Positions 222 through 16,344 of a stretch of DNA of 64,000 nucleotides are shown here, one piece after another. The notes beneath the pieces were generated by a model. It worked only from the letters and a program-made list of their open reading frames with translations. It was not told the origin of the DNA and did no database searches. The position numbers were made by a program, and so were the translations under genes. Numbering within the stretch: the stretch's first letter is position 1; each line of letters begins with the position of its first letter. This DNA comes from Syntrophomonadaceae bacterium. Its GTDB lineage: Bacteria; Bacillota; Syntrophomonadia; Syntrophomonadales; DTU052. The DNA lies in the NCBI GenBank assembly GCA_012728655.1, contig JAAYEQ010000026.1:28392-92391 (forward strand), read 5' to 3'.

Positions 222-560
222 CGGTGTCAAGACCGGGGTTAGAGCGGGTTCTATACCGGGCCGGGATCCGGCCGGTGCCCGCATGCCGGAGGCTGCATCA
301 ACCTGCCGCCTTGCGACGGTGGAGGATCCTGCAGCGTCCGGCGCTTTCCCGGCGCGATAACTGATGTATGGAAACCGCCATGCCCCTGTGTTCATTGCCA
401 GGATCTTCCCCCGGAGCTACCCCTCAACAGCACGTAGAAACGAGTCGAAAATTGACGAATATTAGTGTATAATATAGATGGTTTGCTTAAGACTTTACAG
501 AACGTGCCGCCAGTCATTGGTTACCATTGAACTAACTCGACTGGGGGGAGGGTTGAGCAA

Positions 561-3260
561 ATGGGTGAAGATTTAATTCCCATTATTGGCATAAATGAAG
601 AGAACTGTACCAACTGTCATCAATGCATTGCTGTTTGTCCGGTCAAGTTTTGCAGTGACGGCAGCGGCGATGTTGTCAAGTTCAACAACAACCTGTGCAT
701 CGGGTGCGGTCGCTGCATCGAGGCCTGCATAAAGAGTCATGGGGGAGTTATCGAAAAGAGTGCCCGTTATGCTATCGATGACAGCGAGGAATTCGTTAAT
801 AGCCTGGACTCTCGGGAGATAGTGGCTCTGGTAGCACCGTCGGCTCACGGCAACTTCAACCTGGGCCGGCTTATTACTGCCTTGAAAAAGTTGGGGGTTA
901 AGGGAGTATACGATGTTTCGCTGGGAGCGGAGATTACTGTAGCCTGCTACCATCGGATCATAGAAAGCGGGGATTTCGAACCGCCGGTTATTGCGACTCC
1001 CTGTCCTTCGGTGGTTCAATTTATTGAACTCCATCACCCCCTCCTTTTAAGGTATCTGGCCCCGGTTGGCAGTCCGGTATACAATCTGGGTGTTTATGTG
1101 CGGTCACTGCATCCGGGTGCGGAACTGGCTTTCATATCCCCCTGCCTGGCCAAGAGACGGGAGTTCCAAGAGAGCAGGATGGTTGATTACAACGTGACCT
1201 ACCGGTCGCTGCAGAGGATCCTGCGGGAGAGGAATATCGATCTGGATTCACTGGAGGAGAGTGAATTTGACGGCGGTGTAAAAGCCGGAATCACCACCAA
1301 TTTCTCCAGTGCCGGCGGGCTGAAGGAATCGTTTCTCTTCCATTACCCGGAGATTCCGGCCAGTAAAATTGTGAAGGTCGACGGACCGTTTGTATTTAAC
1401 GGCTACCTGGACAACCTGGAGAAGGCGATTGTCGAGAAAAGTGAGCATCTTCCCCTGTTGGTGGACATCCTGAGCTGTGAGAAAGGATGTAACATGGGGG
1501 TAGGGTGCATTAATAAAACGGTGGAGCTGACGGATTATCTGACCGCTACTCGCGCCGAGAGAGCCATAAAGGACCGGGAGGCCCAGGAAAGGCTGAAGAA
1601 GTTCCTGGATGAGGTACTGGCTGCCCATAACTTTTCCTATCGCAAATACCGGGACCTGTCACGACGCAGGGAGATCAAGATTCCTACCGACGCCGAGTTG
1701 GAAAAGATATACCGTGACATGCACAAGGTTGAAGAAAAGGAATTCCGCAATTGTGCCGCCTGCGGGTACAACTCCTGCTATCAGATGGCGGTGGCCATAT
1801 TCAACGGACTGAATAAGGCGGCCAACTGCCACCTCTATCAGGAAAAGGAACTGCGGATCGAACAGGAAGCCCTGCAACGGATACACTCCAACCTGACCAA
1901 TGTTTTTGACACCATGTCGGACGGAGTCATCGTATTGGACAAGGCCGGCCGGGTTACCAACTTCAACCGAGCCGCCCTTGAGATCACGGGTTATTCGGGT
2001 AATGATCTGCTGGGTGCCAGTGTGGTTGATCTCTTTTCCGGGAAAGCGCCCGGCACCCTTAAACTGCTGGAAACAGGAGAAGCCTTTGCCGACCGTGAGA
2101 TCCTTCTGGATGGGAAACGCGGCAAGATCCATGCTACCGCCACCGGAAAACCCATCCTTGATGCGGAGAACCGGGTCATAGGGGCTACCATATTTCTGAT
2201 ACCCATTGCCCAGGTAACGCAGTTGGTCAACAAGTTTTCAGGTGCCCAGGCCAACTTTACATTTGCTTCGATAATCGGTGAAGACCCGCAGCTGAAAAAC
2301 GCAGTAAACCTGGCGATGATGGCGGCCACCAACTCTTCCACCGTTCTGCTGCAGGCGGAGAGCGGCACCGGCAAAGAGGTGTTTGCCCAGGCTATTCATA
2401 ACGCCAGTGCGCGCAGCAACGGGCCCTTTGTGGCCATCAACTGCGCGGCGATACCGAGGGACCTGGTGGGCAGCGAATTGTTCGGTTACGCCGAGGGCGC
2501 CTTCACCGGAGCCAAGCGCGGAGGACGACCGGGCAAGTTTGAACTGGCCAACAAAGGCACTCTTTTGCTGGATGAGATCGGAGACATGCCCCTGGAGCAG
2601 CAGGGGGCGTTACTGCGGGCCATACAGGAAAAGGCCGTGATGAGAGTGGGAGGAGACACCCCCATCAAAGTTGATGTAAGAATAATTGCCGCTACCAACC
2701 AGAACCTGCTTGCTCTGGTGGACCAGGGAAGATTCCGGGCCGATCTCTATTACCGGCTTAATGTGATCAAGATCAACATTCCTCCACTGCGAGAACGGCG
2801 GGGCGATATCAGGCTCTTTTTCAACCATTTCCTGACGGAAATGTCGCAGAGGTTGGGCCGCAGGATTTCCGGGGTCGAATCGGAGGTCTACAAGTACCTG
2901 GAGGAATATGACTGGCCGGGAAATGTCCGCGAATTGCAGAACGTGCTGGAAAGAATGATTCTGGTTTCCCCGAACGGTGTCTTGACGGTAGACTCCCTTC
3001 CGCGAGAGATTATCGAAAAAAGCAGGTCAGGTGCACCGGCGCGAGCGAGGTCCGGTTGGACGGCTGATGACCAGACCGTGTTCCCGGAACAGCCGCTGGA
3101 TCGAAAAACGCGGAAGATGCTGGCCGGCGAACAGGAGAAAAAACAGATAATCAGGGTCCTGAATGAGTGTGCCGGCAATGTCAGCAAAGCCTCGGCTATG
3201 CTGGGGATTTCTCGCAATACCATGTACAAGAAGATGAAAAAATACAATATCGTTAATTAG
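561..3260 (+). CDS. sigma54-dependent transcriptional activator with N-terminal 2x[4Fe-4S] ferredoxin and HydS-type sensory [FeFe]-hydrogenase-like domain, then PAS, AAA+ and Fis-type HTH
   Basis: 899-aa ORF with SD GGGGGGAGGG 8 nt upstream. Two ferredoxin motifs: [12 protein letters not shown] and [12 protein letters not shown]-cluster-like motifs: ATPCPS (Cys148), SPCLAKRRE (Cys195), [12 protein letters not shown] (Cys306/310/316). Accessory cluster motif Cx2Cx4Cx16C at C398/C401/C406/C423. PAS at about aa 440-550. Walker [14 protein letters not shown] loop at nt 2496-2513. C-terminal [28 protein letters not shown]. Confidence 0.9.
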
Positions 3261-3267
3261 CCTGATC

Positions 3268-3326
3268 TGTCACCCGATTGTCAACCCGGGTACGGTGGTT
3301 TACAAAAAGGTGACAAATGCTGACAC
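3268..3326 (+). promoter_or_regulatory. candidate upstream activator sequence (four TGTCA pentamers in inverted arrangement)
   Basis: TGTCA at 3268-3272 and 3279-3283. TGACA at 3311-3315 and 3321-3325. Pentamer pairs are spaced 10-11 bp (one helical turn). The block lies about 250-300 bp upstream of the sigma54 promoter at 3573. Confidence 0.4.
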
Positions 3327-3427
3327 GATTGAGCCGTGAAAGAAGCCGGGAGGGCCGGACTACGGCCACGGTGTTACCGGAGATAACAGGTGAAGTTTCC
3401 TGCAATTTCCAGTTATCCTTGGTGGTC

Positions 3428-3459
3428 CCGCAGCCTTTATGAGGCTGCGGTTTCTTTTT
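3428..3459 (+). terminator. intrinsic terminator after the regulator gene
   Basis: Stem CCGCAGCC / GGCTGCGG, 7-nt loop, followed by TTTCTTTTT. A second weaker hairpin CCGGC/GCCGG plus T7 lies at 3524-3547. Confidence 0.6.
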
Positions 3460-3572
3460 GCCCGGATTTGAGGGACGGTAACACCGCTGTCCGTCCGTCC
3501 GCCGGACACTGCGGTTTTTCTGTCCGGCTTTAAGGCCGGTTTTTTTCCGAACCCTGCTCGCTGACGCCAATG

Positions 3573-3588
3573 TGGCACGCAATTTGCA
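3573..3588 (+). promoter_or_regulatory. sigma54 (-24/-12) promoter
   Basis: TGGCACgcaatTTGCA matches the TGGCAC-N5-TTGCW consensus exactly. It lies about 75 nt upstream of the ATG at 3662. A sigma54 activator gene is immediately upstream. Confidence 0.85.
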
Positions 3589-3661
3589 AGTGATAATTGA
3601 CAAAAGACAAAGTCGACGCAGCAAGTCAGTCAAGCGAGCAAAATGTAAGGAGGGAGATCTT

Positions 3662-4231
3662 ATGACAACCACAGCAGCAACGAAGCAAAAGGTCATTACT
3701 CCGTTGGGCAGCGCCTATACCAGAGCGGTGGAGGATTTCGTAAAAGCGATCACTTGTCCTCGTTGTGAGTACGATGTTTATGCCGTCGGCATCGCTTTGG
3801 AGTACTTTGTTGGTTCGGTGTTCATGACGCTGGCTGAGATGGGCCGGGATGTTGCCAGGTCGGAGTATACGCATCTGGCCATGATGCAACTGGAAAGAAA
3901 AGAAAAAATAGTGGCGGTCAACAACAACAAGCTTAACCAGATGCTGCAGTATTTCTACGACAACGGAGGTCCGATTATCGAGCCGCCGGTGGATGAACAG
4001 AAGGCTGCCCGAATCGCACCGCGATTCAAGGCCATCATCAACGAATTCTGTGACCGCATGGATGCCCTGGTAACCAAGGCATCCGCCGGCAGGATCGGGG
4101 TACGCGAGATGGAGAAGGAGACCAATGCCGCCGTTCTCGAAGTTTACACGGCCATGAAGGCTCTGTATCGCGAGTATGAATTGCGGAACGCCTTTGATGA
4201 TTTGCTCAGCTTCAGGACCAATAAGGACTGA
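3662..4231 (+). CDS. hypothetical protein, N-terminal ComFB-like Cys motif (sigma54-dependent target)
   Basis: Start moved to ATG 3662, which has SD AAGGAGGGAG 5 nt upstream. The ORF-track start at 3572 overlaps the promoter. 189 aa. Motif ITCPRCEYDVYAVGIAL resembles the ComFB C-x2-C-x2-DV-x-A-x2-L signature. The rest is not recognised. Confidence 0.7.
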   Translation: MTTTAATKQKVITPLGSAYTRAVEDFVKAITCPRCEYDVYAVGIALEYFVGSVFMTLAEMGRDVARSEYTHLAMMQLERKEKIVAVNNNKLNQMLQYFYDNGGPIIEPPVDEQKAARIAPRFKAIINEFCDRMDALVTKASAGRIGVREMEKETNAAVLEVYTAMKALYREYELRNAFDDLLSFRTNKD

Positions 4232-4360
4232 GATTATGCGAAAGCTTTATCCGGCAGGCGATTGGTTTCCCGATGAACCCCCGGGACCAGGCTGTCTCCA
4301 GGTTTGAGGGCAGCCTGGTCCACAACTCCACCGCTGCAACGAAGCTTATCTCTCATTTTT

Positions 4361-4392
4361 CCTCCCTCTATGGCGGGAGGTTTTATTTGTTT
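4361..4392 (+). terminator. intrinsic terminator
   Basis: Stem CCTCCC / GGGAGG with 8-nt loop, followed by TTTTATTTGTTT. A longer hairpin GGACCAGGCTG/CAGCCTGGTCC at 4285-4321 precedes it. Confidence 0.6.
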
Positions 4393-4488
4393 ATGCAGGA
4401 ATTTGACATTGCAAGCGGAATATAAGATTTGTTATATAAAATTAAGTAACGTATTAATGAAAATTAAATTTTACGGGGAGGGCTAAAC

Positions 4489-5655
4489 TTGCACAGGTTT
4501 AAACAGGTGGCTTTATTGTTGAGCCTTTTGTTGTTGCTCGGATTGGCGGTCGGTTGCGGCGGTGGCAGCCAGACGACCGGCGGAAGTGATGAGGATGTTG
4601 TCAAGGTCGGCTTTCTGGGGGCCCTAACCGGAGATGTGGCCTGTTACGGTATTCCGGGCCTAAAGGGGCTTGAACTGGCGGTGGAGGAGATAAACGCCAA
4701 TGGCGGAATCCTCGGCAAGAAAGTGGTCATTGTCAAGGAAGACAACGCCGGTGATAAAACCGAAGCCGCATCCATAGTTAAGAAATTCATCAGCAAGGAC
4801 AAGGTTAACGCGATAATCGGGGATCCCTGCACCGGCATCACCATAGTTGCGGCCAGGATTGCCCAGGATCATGAGATGGTTCTCATTTCTCCCGGAGCTT
4901 GCGGCGAGGGAGCTATTGACGCAGGTGATTACTGTTTCCGCAACACCCTGTTGGACAAAATGGCCTGTCCGGCAGTAACCAAATACCTGATTGACAAGGG
5001 CTACAAGAATTTTGCCCTGGTTACCGCGATTAATGACGAGTACAGCGTAGGATTGTCCAACTATTTCCGTGCTGCCTTGAAGGAGTATGGCGGCAACATC
5101 GTGATCGAGGAGAGCATTCAGAGAGGTGACACCAATTTTGCCGCCCAGGTGACCAAGATCAAGCCCACCAACCCGGATATTATAATTTTCACCGGGTACT
5201 ACCAGGAAGCAGCGCTTTTCATGAAAGAGGTGCGCAAGCAGGGGATGGATCAGATTTTCGTCGCCGGGGACGGCTGCCTGGGTGAGGAATTGTACAAACT
5301 CGGCGGTGACGCGGTTGAAGGCGGTATCGTCTACTGCGGGTTCTCACCGGAGCAGAACAGGCCCGAGGTGAAGGAATTCCTGGATGCTTACGCCAAGAAA
5401 TATAACGGAGAATTGGCCGATATGTTCGCCGCCCAGTATTATGATGCGATGTATATCGTAGCCCAAGCCATGGAAAGGGCCGGCAGCACCGATCCCAAGG
5501 TCTACAAGGCTGAGATGGCCAACACCAAGGATTTCCCCGGCGTTTCAGGAATTACAACCTTTGGACCGGACCGCGAGCCGATCAAGAATCCCGTATTCCT
5601 GTTGCAGGTGAAGGACAACAGTTTCAAGCTTCTGGATACGGCAGAGGTTATCTAA
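4489..5655 (+). CDS. branched-chain amino acid ABC transporter substrate-binding lipoprotein (LivK/LivJ family)
   Basis: TTG start with SD GGGGAGGG. Signal peptide with lipobox LAVGC. Type I periplasmic-binding-fold sequence (VKVGFLGALTGD...). First gene of a livHMG-type operon. Confidence 0.85.
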   Translation: MHRFKQVALLLSLLLLLGLAVGCGGGSQTTGGSDEDVVKVGFLGALTGDVACYGIPGLKGLELAVEEINANGGILGKKVVIVKEDNAGDKTEAASIVKKFISKDKVNAIIGDPCTGITIVAARIAQDHEMVLISPGACGEGAIDAGDYCFRNTLLDKMACPAVTKYLIDKGYKNFALVTAINDEYSVGLSNYFRAALKEYGGNIVIEESIQRGDTNFAAQVTKIKPTNPDIIIFTGYYQEAALFMKEVRKQGMDQIFVAGDGCLGEELYKLGGDAVEGGIVYCGFSPEQNRPEVKEFLDAYAKKYNGELADMFAAQYYDAMYIVAQAMERAGSTDPKVYKAEMANTKDFPGVSGITTFGPDREPIKNPVFLLQVKDNSFKLLDTAEVI

Positions 5656-6732: not shown

Positions 6733-7635
6733 GTGGAAGCGTTTATCCTGCAGTATGTAGATATATATGTTCTGCAAATAATGGTTTTGATCGGCATCAA
6801 CATAATTATGGCCCTGGGTTTAAACCTGATCACCGGAGTGACCGGGCAATTGTCCATGGGCCATGCGGGATTTATGAGCATTGGTGCCTATACCTCGGCC
6901 ATCCTTTCTTTGCATTACGGCATGCCCTTCTGGTTCTGCCTGGCGGCGGCGGGGTTGATGGCCGCTTTGGCCGGAGTTTTCATTGGAATACCGACCCTGA
7001 GGCTGGAAGGAGACTACCTGGCCATGGTCACCATCGGTTTTGCCGAGATCGTGCGGGTGGTATTCCTTAATCTGGACATTGCCGGCCGCGGAATGGGGCT
7101 GTCCGGGATACCGGCCACCACCAACTTTACCCTGGTCTGGGGGCTGGTTATTGTCATTGTGCTTTTAAACGCCGGACTTTTGAAGTCGAGACCCGGGCGG
7201 GCGCTGTATTCGATACGCGAGGACGAGATCGCGGCCGAGGCTTCGGGAGTCAATACCACCCTCTACAAAGTGGTGGCCTTCGCCATTGGCACCTTCCTGG
7301 CCGGTATCGGCGGGTCGCTCTATGCCCATTACCTAACCTACATCAGTCCCCAGGACTTCGACTTTATGAGGTCGGTCGAGTATTTGAACATGGTGGTTTT
7401 GGGAGGAATGGGCAGCATCCCCGGAACCATTCTGGGAACGGTGATTCTGACCATCCTTCCCGAGGTTTTGCGTTTTGTACAGGATTACCGGCTGCTGTTC
7501 TACGGCGCCTTGCTGGTTACACTCATGATATTCCGGCCCAATGGACTGCTGGGCGATGTGCGCTGGATCGATGTTAAGCGGACCTGGGCGCGGATAAGAG
7601 GGCAGTCCCTGGCCTCATCCAGTTCTGACAGTTAG
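6733..7635 (+). CDS. livM: branched-chain amino acid ABC transporter permease LivM
   Basis: GTG start with SD GGAGG. LNLITGVTGQLSMGHAGFMSIGAY is typical of LivM. Confidence 0.85.
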   Translation: MEAFILQYVDIYVLQIMVLIGINIIMALGLNLITGVTGQLSMGHAGFMSIGAYTSAILSLHYGMPFWFCLAAAGLMAALAGVFIGIPTLRLEGDYLAMVTIGFAEIVRVVFLNLDIAGRGMGLSGIPATTNFTLVWGLVIVIVLLNAGLLKSRPGRALYSIREDEIAAEASGVNTTLYKVVAFAIGTFLAGIGGSLYAHYLTYISPQDFDFMRSVEYLNMVVLGGMGSIPGTILGTVILTILPEVLRFVQDYRLLFYGALLVTLMIFRPNGLLGDVRWIDVKRTWARIRGQSLASSSSDS

Positions 7636-15060: not shown

Positions 15061-16047
15061 TTATTGCTGAATCATATCTGGATCTCTGCTCCAGGGCTTA
15101 TCCATGACCACATGCTCAATGGACAGGGGTTTGCCTTCCACCGTGATCTGGACCTGGTCGATATTATCAAGTTCCGTCAGGGTGGCTACAATGGAGTGGA
15201 TGGTCATTGCTTCCCCGGCAGCTCCGCCCGCATGCTTGGAGTGCATTTCCGAAGAAAAGTCGATAAAAGCGGTGTCGCCCTTCACCGTGACTGAACGGAC
15301 AGCGGCCTCGGTCGGTATGGTACGGCGAAGCTCGCTGTTGCGCGGACCCTTGATTAGCTCGTTGACAATCATTTTGAGATACCCGGCAACACTGATATTA
15401 CTTGGGACCGATATGGTTCTGGTTTCCGGGACCACCTTGGTGGCGTCCTGATTGGCAAAATAGAGGGTAATATTCCTTTTCACTTCGGACGGACCGGGCT
15501 TGGCCGGAGCGGACGCTGACGAACGATTTTCTTCGGTCGAAGTTCCAGGCTGCATGGGGAAGGTTTTCATCCATCCCCGGGGCAAGCCACTCGGTCCCTT
15601 TAATTCTTCACCCTCTACCAGGATTTTGACCTCATCGATTTCGTCAAACTGAGTCAGGGTGTTGACAAAAGCGCCTATCCCCAGGATTTCGGCCATGGTG
15701 CCATCGAAACGAGCAAAGTCGTCACTGACATCGACGATCAGCTTGTCGTCCTGCTTGATGGTCCCGTAAACTTTGGTATTCGGCGAAATGTTGACCCGGT
15801 AATCGTCATCTTTGGGACCCTTGAGCAAAGCTTTCAGGACGGCGGTGTACTTGTCTTCCCCGGCTTTGATTGTAATCTGTCGCTCTTCGGTTACCAGTCT
15901 TTCGTTATCCTCGTCGGCGAAATAGAGCTTAACTGTCTCGACTGTTTGCTCGGGCCGCTGGGGAACATTTTCCTGTTCCTGGGCACACCCGGCGAGCATT
16001 GTAGCCAGCAAAACTGATGCCATTAACAGAGACAACCGTTTAACCAT
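15061..16047 (-). CDS. gerM: GerM-like sporulation/germination lipoprotein (two GerMN domains)
   Basis: Start moved to ATG 16047 (SD GGAAAGGAGTG). Signal peptide MVKRLSLLMASVLLATMLAGC with lipobox. Two repeated GerMN-like halves (LYFAD.../LYFANQ...). Confidence 0.8.
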   Translation of the reverse strand: MVKRLSLLMASVLLATMLAGCAQEQENVPQRPEQTVETVKLYFADEDNERLVTEERQITIKAGEDKYTAVLKALLKGPKDDDYRVNISPNTKVYGTIKQDDKLIVDVSDDFARFDGTMAEILGIGAFVNTLTQFDEIDEVKILVEGEELKGPSGLPRGWMKTFPMQPGTSTEENRSSASAPAKPGPSEVKRNITLYFANQDATKVVPETRTISVPSNISVAGYLKMIVNELIKGPRNSELRRTIPTEAAVRSVTVKGDTAFIDFSSEMHSKHAGGAAGEAMTIHSIVATLTELDNIDQVQITVEGKPLSIEHVVMDKPWSRDPDMIQQ

Positions 16048-16344
16048 ATAACTCACTCCTTTCCTGTAACTAGTATGCTCCAACCAGGTTGATTCTTGCG
16101 TATAAACATTACGCAACCCTCTAACCCGGCATAAACGACGTAAATTTACATGCATGGTTAATCAATGGGCAGAATCATGCTAAATCTTGGTGAAAAACCA
16201 TAATTATGCAGGAATATTAACATGATGGAAGAAGTAATACAATAGAATACTTCCTGCCTGAGCAAGCCTTCGCTGCATTATCCTAAAACCAGTCAAAGCC
16301 GGATTTTTGACAGTTGGAAAAGCCGGATAATAGGGGGAACGATC

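Follow-up and report, generated by a model that had tools for sequence, protein, structure and literature searches.

A predicted sigma54 control region beside a gene for a sensory [FeFe]-hydrogenase-type activator in a Syntrophomonadaceae bacterium

In Cupriavidus necator (Ralstonia eutropha), the [NiFe] regulatory hydrogenase HoxBC, the kinase HoxJ and the NtrC-type activator HoxA form a pathway to sigma54 promoters, in which a catalytically poor sensory hydrogenase acts through an enhancer-binding protein (EBP) to govern how hydrogenase genes are transcribed with sigma54. This system may be regarded as the closest functional analogue of a locus that we describe here in a 64,000-nucleotide stretch of a Syntrophomonadaceae bacterium (GenBank GCA_012728655.1, contig JAAYEQ010000026.1, positions 28,392 to 92,391; the whole stretch is hereafter called the window). 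The locus consists of a regulator gene with a hydrogenase-like sensor (561–3260), an enhancer array (3268–3325), a sigma54 promoter (3573–3588) and a small gene that we call famB (3662–4231). The Hox sensor is of the [NiFe] type and works through three to four separate proteins and a phosphorelay, whereas the [FeFe]-type sensor, AAA+ domain and helix-turn-helix (HTH) domain are found here in one polypeptide. The C. necator system controls an uptake hydrogenase, while the system in the window would control an NADH-linked HydABC enzyme in a Gram-positive syntroph.

Several other described systems share part of this arrangement. The sensor build of the window's regulator is common to group C (M2f) putative sensory [FeFe] hydrogenases, including TmHydS, RaHydS, HfsB and the subtypes linked to kinases, methyl-accepting chemotaxis proteins (MCPs) or phosphatases (PMC8163306; PMC8924675). 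Its output differs from theirs in being a sigma54 AAA+ domain with an HTH domain, and the path would end directly at a defined promoter. EBPs with a Fer4-Fe_hyd_lg_C-FeS module occur in Thermincola potens (TherJR_2992) and Carboxydocella (CFE_2753), and no upstream activating sequence (UAS) or regulon was given for these hydrogenase-domain EBPs (Nie et al., 2019; PMC6615313). The same study reported that many Clostridiales EBPs use TGT-N10-12-ACA UAS sites, which are typically multiple and lie 100–250 bp upstream. The PrdR-type Clostridiales PAS EBPs that it describes resemble the present case in their PAS-AAA+-HTH_8 core, their multiple TGT/ACA sites and the position of the target beside the regulator, whereas our array is made of phased direct repeats in two opposed arms and can lie up to 414 bp from its promoter. 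In the Escherichia coli FhlA/formate hydrogenlyase regulon, a sigma54 EBP likewise activates hydrogenase genes from TGT-type UAS sites, but FhlA senses formate via GAF domains, in another organism and for another class of hydrogenase. Rex-repressed hydrogenase operons of Clostridia and Thermoanaerobacterales (PMC6391272) have a parallel in the sister promoter of famA-hydCBA, which carries a Rex operator over its start site; the famB promoter, in contrast, is without the operator, owing to a 10-nt deletion. Our full-text literature searches retrieved no description of a regulon governed by an EBP-linked sensory [FeFe] hydrogenase. An EBP gene with a sigma54 promoter next to it is nothing unusual, but the type of regulator and the regulon that it exposes are of interest. 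To our knowledge, sensory [FeFe] hydrogenases owe the sensor label, now 15 years old, to domain content alone, with no output defined.

We propose, with a probability of roughly 75%, that 3268–3588 controls a sigma54 transcription unit with a single gene, which is activated from an enhancer by the adjacent regulator; H2, or a redox state imposed by H2, would be the signal and may switch the promoter either on or off. Sigma54-RNA polymerase would bind TGGCAC-N5-TTGCA (3573–3588) as a closed complex. The 899-aa regulator would bind, via its C-terminal Fis-type HTH domain, the 58-bp array of five TGTNA/TNACA half-sites, which are one helical turn apart, two facing one way and three the other. The approximately 250 bp between array and promoter, which carry the regulator's terminator and a T-tract, would loop out, and the AAA+ ring with its GAFTGA motif would spend ATP to open the promoter. 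Transcription would then start near 3599 and yield a monocistronic famB mRNA (3662–4231) that ends at the terminator at 4361. The activity of the regulator would be set by its N-terminal sensory [FeFe]-hydrogenase module, in which the ligands are kept and the proton-relay Cys is lost, together with the FeS motif and the PAS domain. The initial annotation of this DNA had suggested the core of this scheme, namely a sigma54 promoter with an upstream TGT/ACA enhancer and an adjacent sensor-activator, and the comparative tests support it. We infer that the regulator binds the array, that the intervening DNA loops, that transcription starts at the predicted position, that H2 is the signal, and that rpoN and hydEFG are present in the genome.

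The sequence TGGCACgcaatTTGCA at 3573–3588 (+ strand) matches TGGCAC-N5-TTGCW at every position, with TGGCAC at 3573–3578, the spacer gcaat, and TTGCA at 3584–3588. Its GG (3574–3575, -25/-24) and GC (3586–3587, -13/-12) doublets are spaced exactly 10 bp apart, and it lies in intergenic DNA 89 nt 5' of the famB ATG at 3662. It had been annotated as a perfect site and as the only one on either strand. Both statements hold for TGGCAC-N5-TTGCW, which has a single match in a scan of both strands of the window, against a mean of 0.09 per dinucleotide shuffle. We took the contexts of FamB homologues from metagenome assemblies and metagenome-assembled genomes, assigned to Syntrophothermus sp. DTU052, Syntrophothermus sp. 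UBA1445, a Syntrophomonadales bacterium and a Bacillota bacterium; individual comparison loci are cited by L numbers. The motif is perfect in 12 out of 12 orthologous famB loci, which represent six distinct sequences, and stands approximately 89 nt before the famB ATG. When the spacers are aligned, TGGCACGC.A.TTGCA is invariant and most of the remaining spacer is unalignable. From this comparison, a chance origin of the motif can be considered excluded, because it is invariant in lineages down to 63% FamB identity while the spacer around it cannot be aligned. The predicted transcription start (3597–3601, centred on about 3599) is placed 12 nt past the -12 C, the usual spacing, and the leader would be about 63 nt long. 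A scan of the + strand between the terminators and the famB ATG detected no sigma70-like promoter, and famB would be strictly dependent on sigma54. A looser consensus, TGGCAY, returned one further match in the window, TGGCAT-N5-TTGCT at 16007–16022 (- strand), which is located inside the open reading frame (ORF) 15061–16155 (-), downstream of both of its candidate starts, and probably represents an intragenic site that is non-productive or due to chance.

The enhancer, or UAS, array at 3268–3325 (no strand assigned) comprises five half-sites. H1 (TGTCACC, 3268–3274) and H2 (TGTCAAC, 3279–3285) face one way and are 11 bp apart; H3 (TTTACA, 3299–3304, ACA at 3302–3304) and H4 (GGTGACA, 3309–3315, ACA at 3313–3315) face the opposite way, also 11 bp apart, and H5 (CTGACA, 3320–3325, ACA at 3323–3325) lies 10 bp beyond H4. 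The array spans 48–58 bp, and H1–H4 form a pseudo-palindrome about 3291/3292. All four TGTCA/TGACA pentamers that had been annotated (at 3268, 3279, 3311 and 3321) are present, but the invariant H3, TTTACA, had been overlooked. The enhancer had also been described as phased, and this is true of the half-sites, which recur every 10–11 bp within each arm, but the comparison does not support strict phasing relative to the promoter: the array-promoter distance varies between 234 and 414 bp in FamB loci (about 250 bp in the window), without a fixed helical phase.

Conservation sets the array apart from its surroundings. Across an alignment of seven loci, the columns that never vary are TGT.A.C at 3268–3274, TGT.A.C at 3279–3285, T.ACA.AA at 3300–3307 and GT.ACA at 3310–3315. 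H5 is the least conserved half-site in the FamB loci, where it is (G)ACA in five of the six distinct sequences, and its counterpart GTTACA is well conserved in the loci of the paralogous famA gene. L003 carries a tandem additional copy of the right-hand H3-H4 unit. The pattern TGTNA-N6-TGTNA-N18/19-ACA-N6-TNACA has a single occurrence in the window and a single one in each of 21 related loci, in all of which it lies upstream of a sigma54 promoter of famA or famB; none of 300 simulated 64-kb sequences contained it. As in a UAS, repeated sites are found upstream of a sigma54 promoter and are conserved along with it. The opposed half-sites are TGT-N20-ACA and TGT-N42-ACA rather than a TGT-N10-12-ACA dyad, and readings of the array as a Rex, CRP/FNR-type or canonical TGT-N10-12-ACA site were rejected on account of this misfit in spacing.

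The gene order in FamB loci is hydA, regulator, famB and a Liv-type ABC transporter, the last of which is missing in one lineage. At its left edge (1–220, +), the window holds the 3' end of hydA, which encodes the catalytic subunit of a HydABC-type [FeFe] hydrogenase; this assignment is based on synteny with L001, L003, L015, L017 and L019 and on an alignment of the gene end. In the window's lineage (L015), a famA-hydC-hydB-hydA operon is located just upstream of what would be the window start. FamA is a protein of 182 aa that is 33% identical to FamB and 49% identical to a protein in L014. In L014, this FamB relative (193 aa; hhalign probability 99.9%) heads an operon and is followed by hydC, hydB, hydA and a regulator of the same type, with TGGCATgacttTTGCA upstream of the first gene and, 172 bp further up, the array TGTCATCTTTGTGTAACC...GTTTACACAAAAGTTACAACTATGTTACA. 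A metagenome scan with FamA-type sequences identified 14 loci, all with the order famA-hydC-hydB-hydA. A sigma54 motif with at most one mismatch is present 61–106 nt before famA in 13 of the 14, including L019, whose regulator is 90–96% identical to that of the window; the L014 gene is preceded by such a motif too. In most FamA loci, the array lies 157–172 bp upstream of the sigma54 promoter and away from any regulator stop codon. In every FamB locus, on the other hand, it begins 8 nt past that codon. These comparisons indicate that the array moves with the sigma54 promoter and not with the regulator stop codon, because array and promoter together also precede the paralogous gene at the head of the hydrogenase operon.

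The regulator (561–3260, +) is a one-component sensor-activator of 899 aa with two [4Fe-4S] motifs, an H-domain, a Cx2Cx4Cx16C motif, a PAS domain, a sigma54 AAA+ domain with GAFTGA, and HTH_8. The order of its Pfam matches is two 4Fe-4S ferredoxin motifs (Fer4), Fe_hyd_lg_C, the FeS motif PF04060, PAS, Sigma54_activat, AAA_lid_14 and HTH_8. The AAA+ sigma54-interaction domain (PF00158) is matched with an E value of 7e-67; GAFTGA is encoded at nt 2496, and the Walker A/B motifs of an EBP can be read in the translation as GESGTGKE and DEIGD. The C-terminal HTH_8 domain covers residues 857–895 (E value 1e-16). Among NCBIfam models the best match is PrdR, with a score below the cut-off. We aligned the N-terminal 440 residues to the solved [FeFe] hydrogenases HydA2 and CpI and examined the H-cluster ligands C300, C355, C499 and C503 (CpI numbering). 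All four cysteines are kept, in the contexts TPCP, SPCLAK and SCEKGC, whereas Pro takes the place of the proton-relay Cys299, and the residues at Met353 and Met497 differ as well. Retained cysteine ligands, the loss of C299, two [4Fe-4S] motifs, a Cx2Cx4Cx16C motif readable in the translation and a PAS domain are together the features of a group C sensory enzyme. The putative sensory M2e and M2f enzymes also have Cx2Cx4Cx16C and lack Cys299 (PMC8163306). As judged from its predicted domains, the regulator thus joins a group-C-type sensory [FeFe] hydrogenase to a direct and unusual transcriptional output. Its sensor is 60–64% identical to histidine-kinase-fused homologues from Syntrophomonadaceae and 52–57% identical to MCP-fused ones, and a sigma54 domain is the output in two of the 120 relatives listed. 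In several low-coverage metagenome contigs (L002/L015, L006 and L013), the regulator or hydA is broken into at least two ORFs, which are probably assembly frameshifts and not true pseudogenes.

Syntrophomonas wolfei offers a point of comparison. Its genome (CP000448.1, 1183050–1186252; L033:8001–11203) contains a histidine-kinase-fused sensory hydrogenase, the sensor of which is 62% identical to ours, followed by a receiver-HD-GYP response regulator. This arrangement suggests that H2 sensing in S. wolfei could have a cyclic-di-GMP output rather than a transcriptional one. We had considered that the window's EBP might be a simple fusion of an S. wolfei pair of kinase and sigma54 response regulator, and rejected this because the receiver-HD-GYP protein sits there instead. 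A word-indexed search yielded no FamA homologue from S. wolfei, and accordingly no link to its biochemically studied Hyd1ABC.

Several observations weigh against our interpretation of 3268–3588. Neither an RpoN box nor the maturase genes hydEFG were detected in the 64-kb window; rpoN is listed for S. wolfei and S. lipocalidus (Nie et al., 2019; PMC6615313, Table S1). The array-promoter distance in FamB loci exceeds the usual UAS range and is unphased, and the direct repeats within each arm, unlike the usual TGT-N10-12-ACA dimer site, bear on the stoichiometry of binding. FamA loci in the series L021–L032 have the same array and no EBP gene within 7 kb, and its binder may be another or a distant EBP. 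Finally, the sensory role of group C enzymes is still termed putative, and reviews of [FeFe] hydrogenases mention no sigma54 output (PMC8924675).

Some of these points would also fit a system that is built as we describe while its sensor reports something other than H2, either as a general redox, O2 or CO sensor working through its FeS clusters or as a Nar1/NARF-like protein without the [2Fe] subcluster. We consider this unlikely, though it is an alternative of some weight. The replacement of Cys299 by Pro and the altered Met353 and Met497 are compatible with it, as are the lack of maturase genes in the window and the putative status of the group C role; Nar1-type proteins have a hydrogenase fold without an H-cluster (PMC12621388). 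However, all four H-cluster cysteine ligands are retained, and the loss of Cys299 is a hallmark of TmHydS and TamHydS, sensory enzymes that bind H2 and also bind the H-cluster (PMC8163306). The regulon also includes a hydrogenase operon. Since the sensor is of the group C sensory type, H2 or a redox state imposed by H2 is most likely the signal.

It is more doubtful still that the promoter and array are genuine while the array is bound by a different EBP encoded elsewhere, with the adjacent regulator having other targets or acting only in part. At least eight FamA loci combine the array and the sigma54 promoter with no EBP gene in the surrounding 7 kb, and related species have about six EBPs each (Nie et al., 2019; Table S1). 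Against this, an EBP with an Fe-hydrogenase domain adjoins the array-promoter module in two different gene orders, hydA-regulator-[array-promoter-famB] and, in L014, [array-promoter-famA-hydCBA]-regulator. EBP genes are usually found next to their targets (PMC6615313), and in the loci that have none, the regulator may be encoded farther off.

The transcribed position of the array, just after the regulator stop codon and ahead of the regulator terminator, raises the question of whether 3268–3325 is instead an RNA element, such as an imperfect stem-loop in the 3' untranslated region (UTR) of the regulator that serves as an mRNA stabiliser or processing site. The array is a nested inverted repeat and folds into one hairpin in the window, L003 and L007. 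However, L001 and L008 fold differently, and the folding z-scores reach only modest values, between -1.1 and -2.9 apart from a single +0.2. The change from TGTCACC to TGTAACC has no compensating counterpart in GGTGACA; conservation applies to sequence (TGT/ACA and the A-run of the "internal loop") and not to base pairing, and the array has no Rfam match. FamA promoters have the same array upstream, in intergenic DNA that bears no relation to regulator 3' ends. On the strength of the inconsistent folds and the FamA loci, we rejected the hairpin, which is largely refuted and very improbable. The idea that the sigma54 motif is a fortuitous match, with famB read through or transcribed from an unrecognised sigma70 promoter, deserves hardly any credence: a single 11-base match can arise by chance (8 out of 100 shuffles had at least one), but the motif's invariance in six distinct orthologous sequences with unalignable flanks, the conserved terminator upstream, the failure of the scan to find a sigma70-like site and the same class of motif before 13 of the 14 FamA genes effectively refute it.

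The sigma54 unit that we propose has defined boundaries. An intrinsic terminator of the regulator transcript, a strong hairpin with a T-run, lies between enhancer and promoter at 3428–3460 (+) and is present in six out of six distinct orthologous sequences, with compensatory changes in the hairpin. Two additional terminator-like hairpins, at 3490–3521 and 3524–3547 (+), are peculiar to the window sequence, although the T-run that precedes the famB promoter is conserved. Our scan located a hairpin plus T-run at 3428–3450 and at 3524–3539. The initial annotation had two terminators (3428–3459 and 3524–3547) isolating the promoter; both hairpins exist, but only the first is conserved as a terminator. 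On the far side of famB, its 3' UTR contains a hairpin without a T-run (4286–4319, +) that has a conserved stem of 13–14 bp, with compensatory changes in L003; it is preceded by a conserved TGGTTT...GTGAAC segment and has no Rfam match. A conserved intrinsic terminator at 4361–4390 (+) closes the transcript. By these predicted boundaries, famB is a monocistronic unit, because it is enclosed by conserved terminators and a sigma-A-like block stands downstream, before the liv genes. An Rfam scan of 3000–4700 (E ≤ 1) gave only sub-threshold noise, and on this basis there is no known riboswitch or small RNA between the regulator and famB. A small leader ORF 3' of the famB promoter was discarded as a candidate; it is not conserved and is present in L007 and L008 only.

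The famA and famB promoters differ with respect to Rex. Most FamA promoters have a near-consensus Rex operator, TTGTTAA-N4-TTCACAA (one mismatch), directly over the predicted start site; examples are found at L019:6963–6980 and L014:697–714, and also in L020, L021, L029 and L032. L021 has no sigma54 motif and contains two Rex boxes with sigma70-like promoters. Because the Rex operators overlie sigma54 start sites, the comparison implies that famA-hydCBA would be under dual control by the EBP and by NADH/NAD+ through Rex. Near 3268–3662, no TTGTGAA-N4-TTCACAA-like dyad with up to three mismatches was found. In one lineage, the promoter-proximal DNA reads agttattgTTAAATGATTcacaaacataag for famA and agttattgGcaaaacataag for famB, with a 10-nt deletion in the latter. 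Judged by this alignment, the famB control region is a duplicate of that of famA from which the Rex operator has been deleted. A conserved A-rich segment, ATTGACAAAAG / ATTAACAAAAGG, is located just past the -12 element at 3590–3612 and at equivalent positions in L003, L010, L011, L012 and L013; this segment with its ACAAAAG would be conserved because it is a remnant of the right half of the deleted operator. With the operator lost through the 10-nt deletion, the famB promoter of the window is predicted to answer to the EBP alone.

A distant FamB homologue (36% identity) in Syntrophomonas curvata (CM129641.1) has three Rex-like boxes within 210 nt upstream (L009:7789–7907), and its gene lacks both a sigma54 site and a neighbouring EBP of the hydrogenase type. 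On the opposite strand of L009, a sigma54-like motif at 7458–7473 faces an operon for enoyl-CoA hydratase, acetyl-CoA hydrolase and acyl-CoA dehydrogenase, and a GAF-EBP gene is found at 1178–3130.

The predicted sigma54-dependent target, famB (3662–4231, +), encodes an all-helical protein of 189 aa from an uncharacterised family with the motifs CPRC and YFYDNGGPIIEPPVDE. Its ribosome-binding site, AAGGAGGG at 3647–3654 (+), was recognised by sequence and is conserved in the alignment. The true start is the ATG at 3662, where all homologues begin with MTT, and the 90 nt 5' of it are not conserved as coding sequence. The ORF start called at 3572 is an artefact, as had been proposed, with a GTG that overlaps the promoter. 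FamB has no match in Pfam or NCBIfam. An AlphaFold (AF2) model built from 11 homologues is all-helical, with a predicted local distance difference test (pLDDT) score of 85 and a predicted template modelling (pTM) score of 0.81, and it has no significant fold match in the PDB. A word-indexed search recovered 11 relatives among 5.8 billion proteins, and a full profile search recovered 59 cluster representatives, all of 130–225 aa. The invariable linkage of FamA and FamB to HydABC and the regulator suggests a role as a hydrogenase accessory protein or in feedback on the activator. The comparison thus brings to notice a small conserved family that always accompanies HydABC in this group.

More tentatively, and as a possibility that we would not put at even odds, the locus could couple H2 sensing at an [FeFe] H-cluster to the opening of a sigma54 promoter within one polypeptide and without a phosphorelay. 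The regulon would comprise the NADH-linked HydABC hydrogenase of syntrophic fatty-acid oxidisers together with FamA/FamB, a protein family not recognised before, and duplication followed by loss of the Rex operator would have made famB a pure H2-reporter gene, the product of which may exert feedback on the activator or the hydrogenase, as in the PspA/PspF and NifL/NifA pairs. For syntrophic oxidisers of butyrate and fatty acids, which grow only at very low H2, the locus suggests how hydrogenase may be regulated, with an H2 input through the EBP and an NADH/NAD+ input through Rex apparently combined. The signalling path would be complete and short, leading from one protein by way of a 58-bp enhancer and a textbook sigma54 promoter to a one-gene readout; because it is so short, H2 sensing could be tested by in vitro transcription with one purified protein and one DNA fragment.

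Two further promoter-like elements flank these genes. Upstream of the regulator, a putative sigma-A-type promoter at 445–473 (+) consists of TCGAAA, a 17-nt spacer and the extended -10 element TGTATAAT; it was assigned by consensus match, and its -10 block is kept in five loci. Downstream of famB, just 5' of the Liv-type ABC transporter operon, TTGACATTGCAAGCGGAATATAAGATTTGTTATATAA at 4403–4439 is invariant in all six lineages. This block resembles a sigma-A promoter (TTGCAA, an 18-nt spacer and TGTTATATA), possibly with an overlapping regulator site, and is much more conserved than the adjoining coding DNA.

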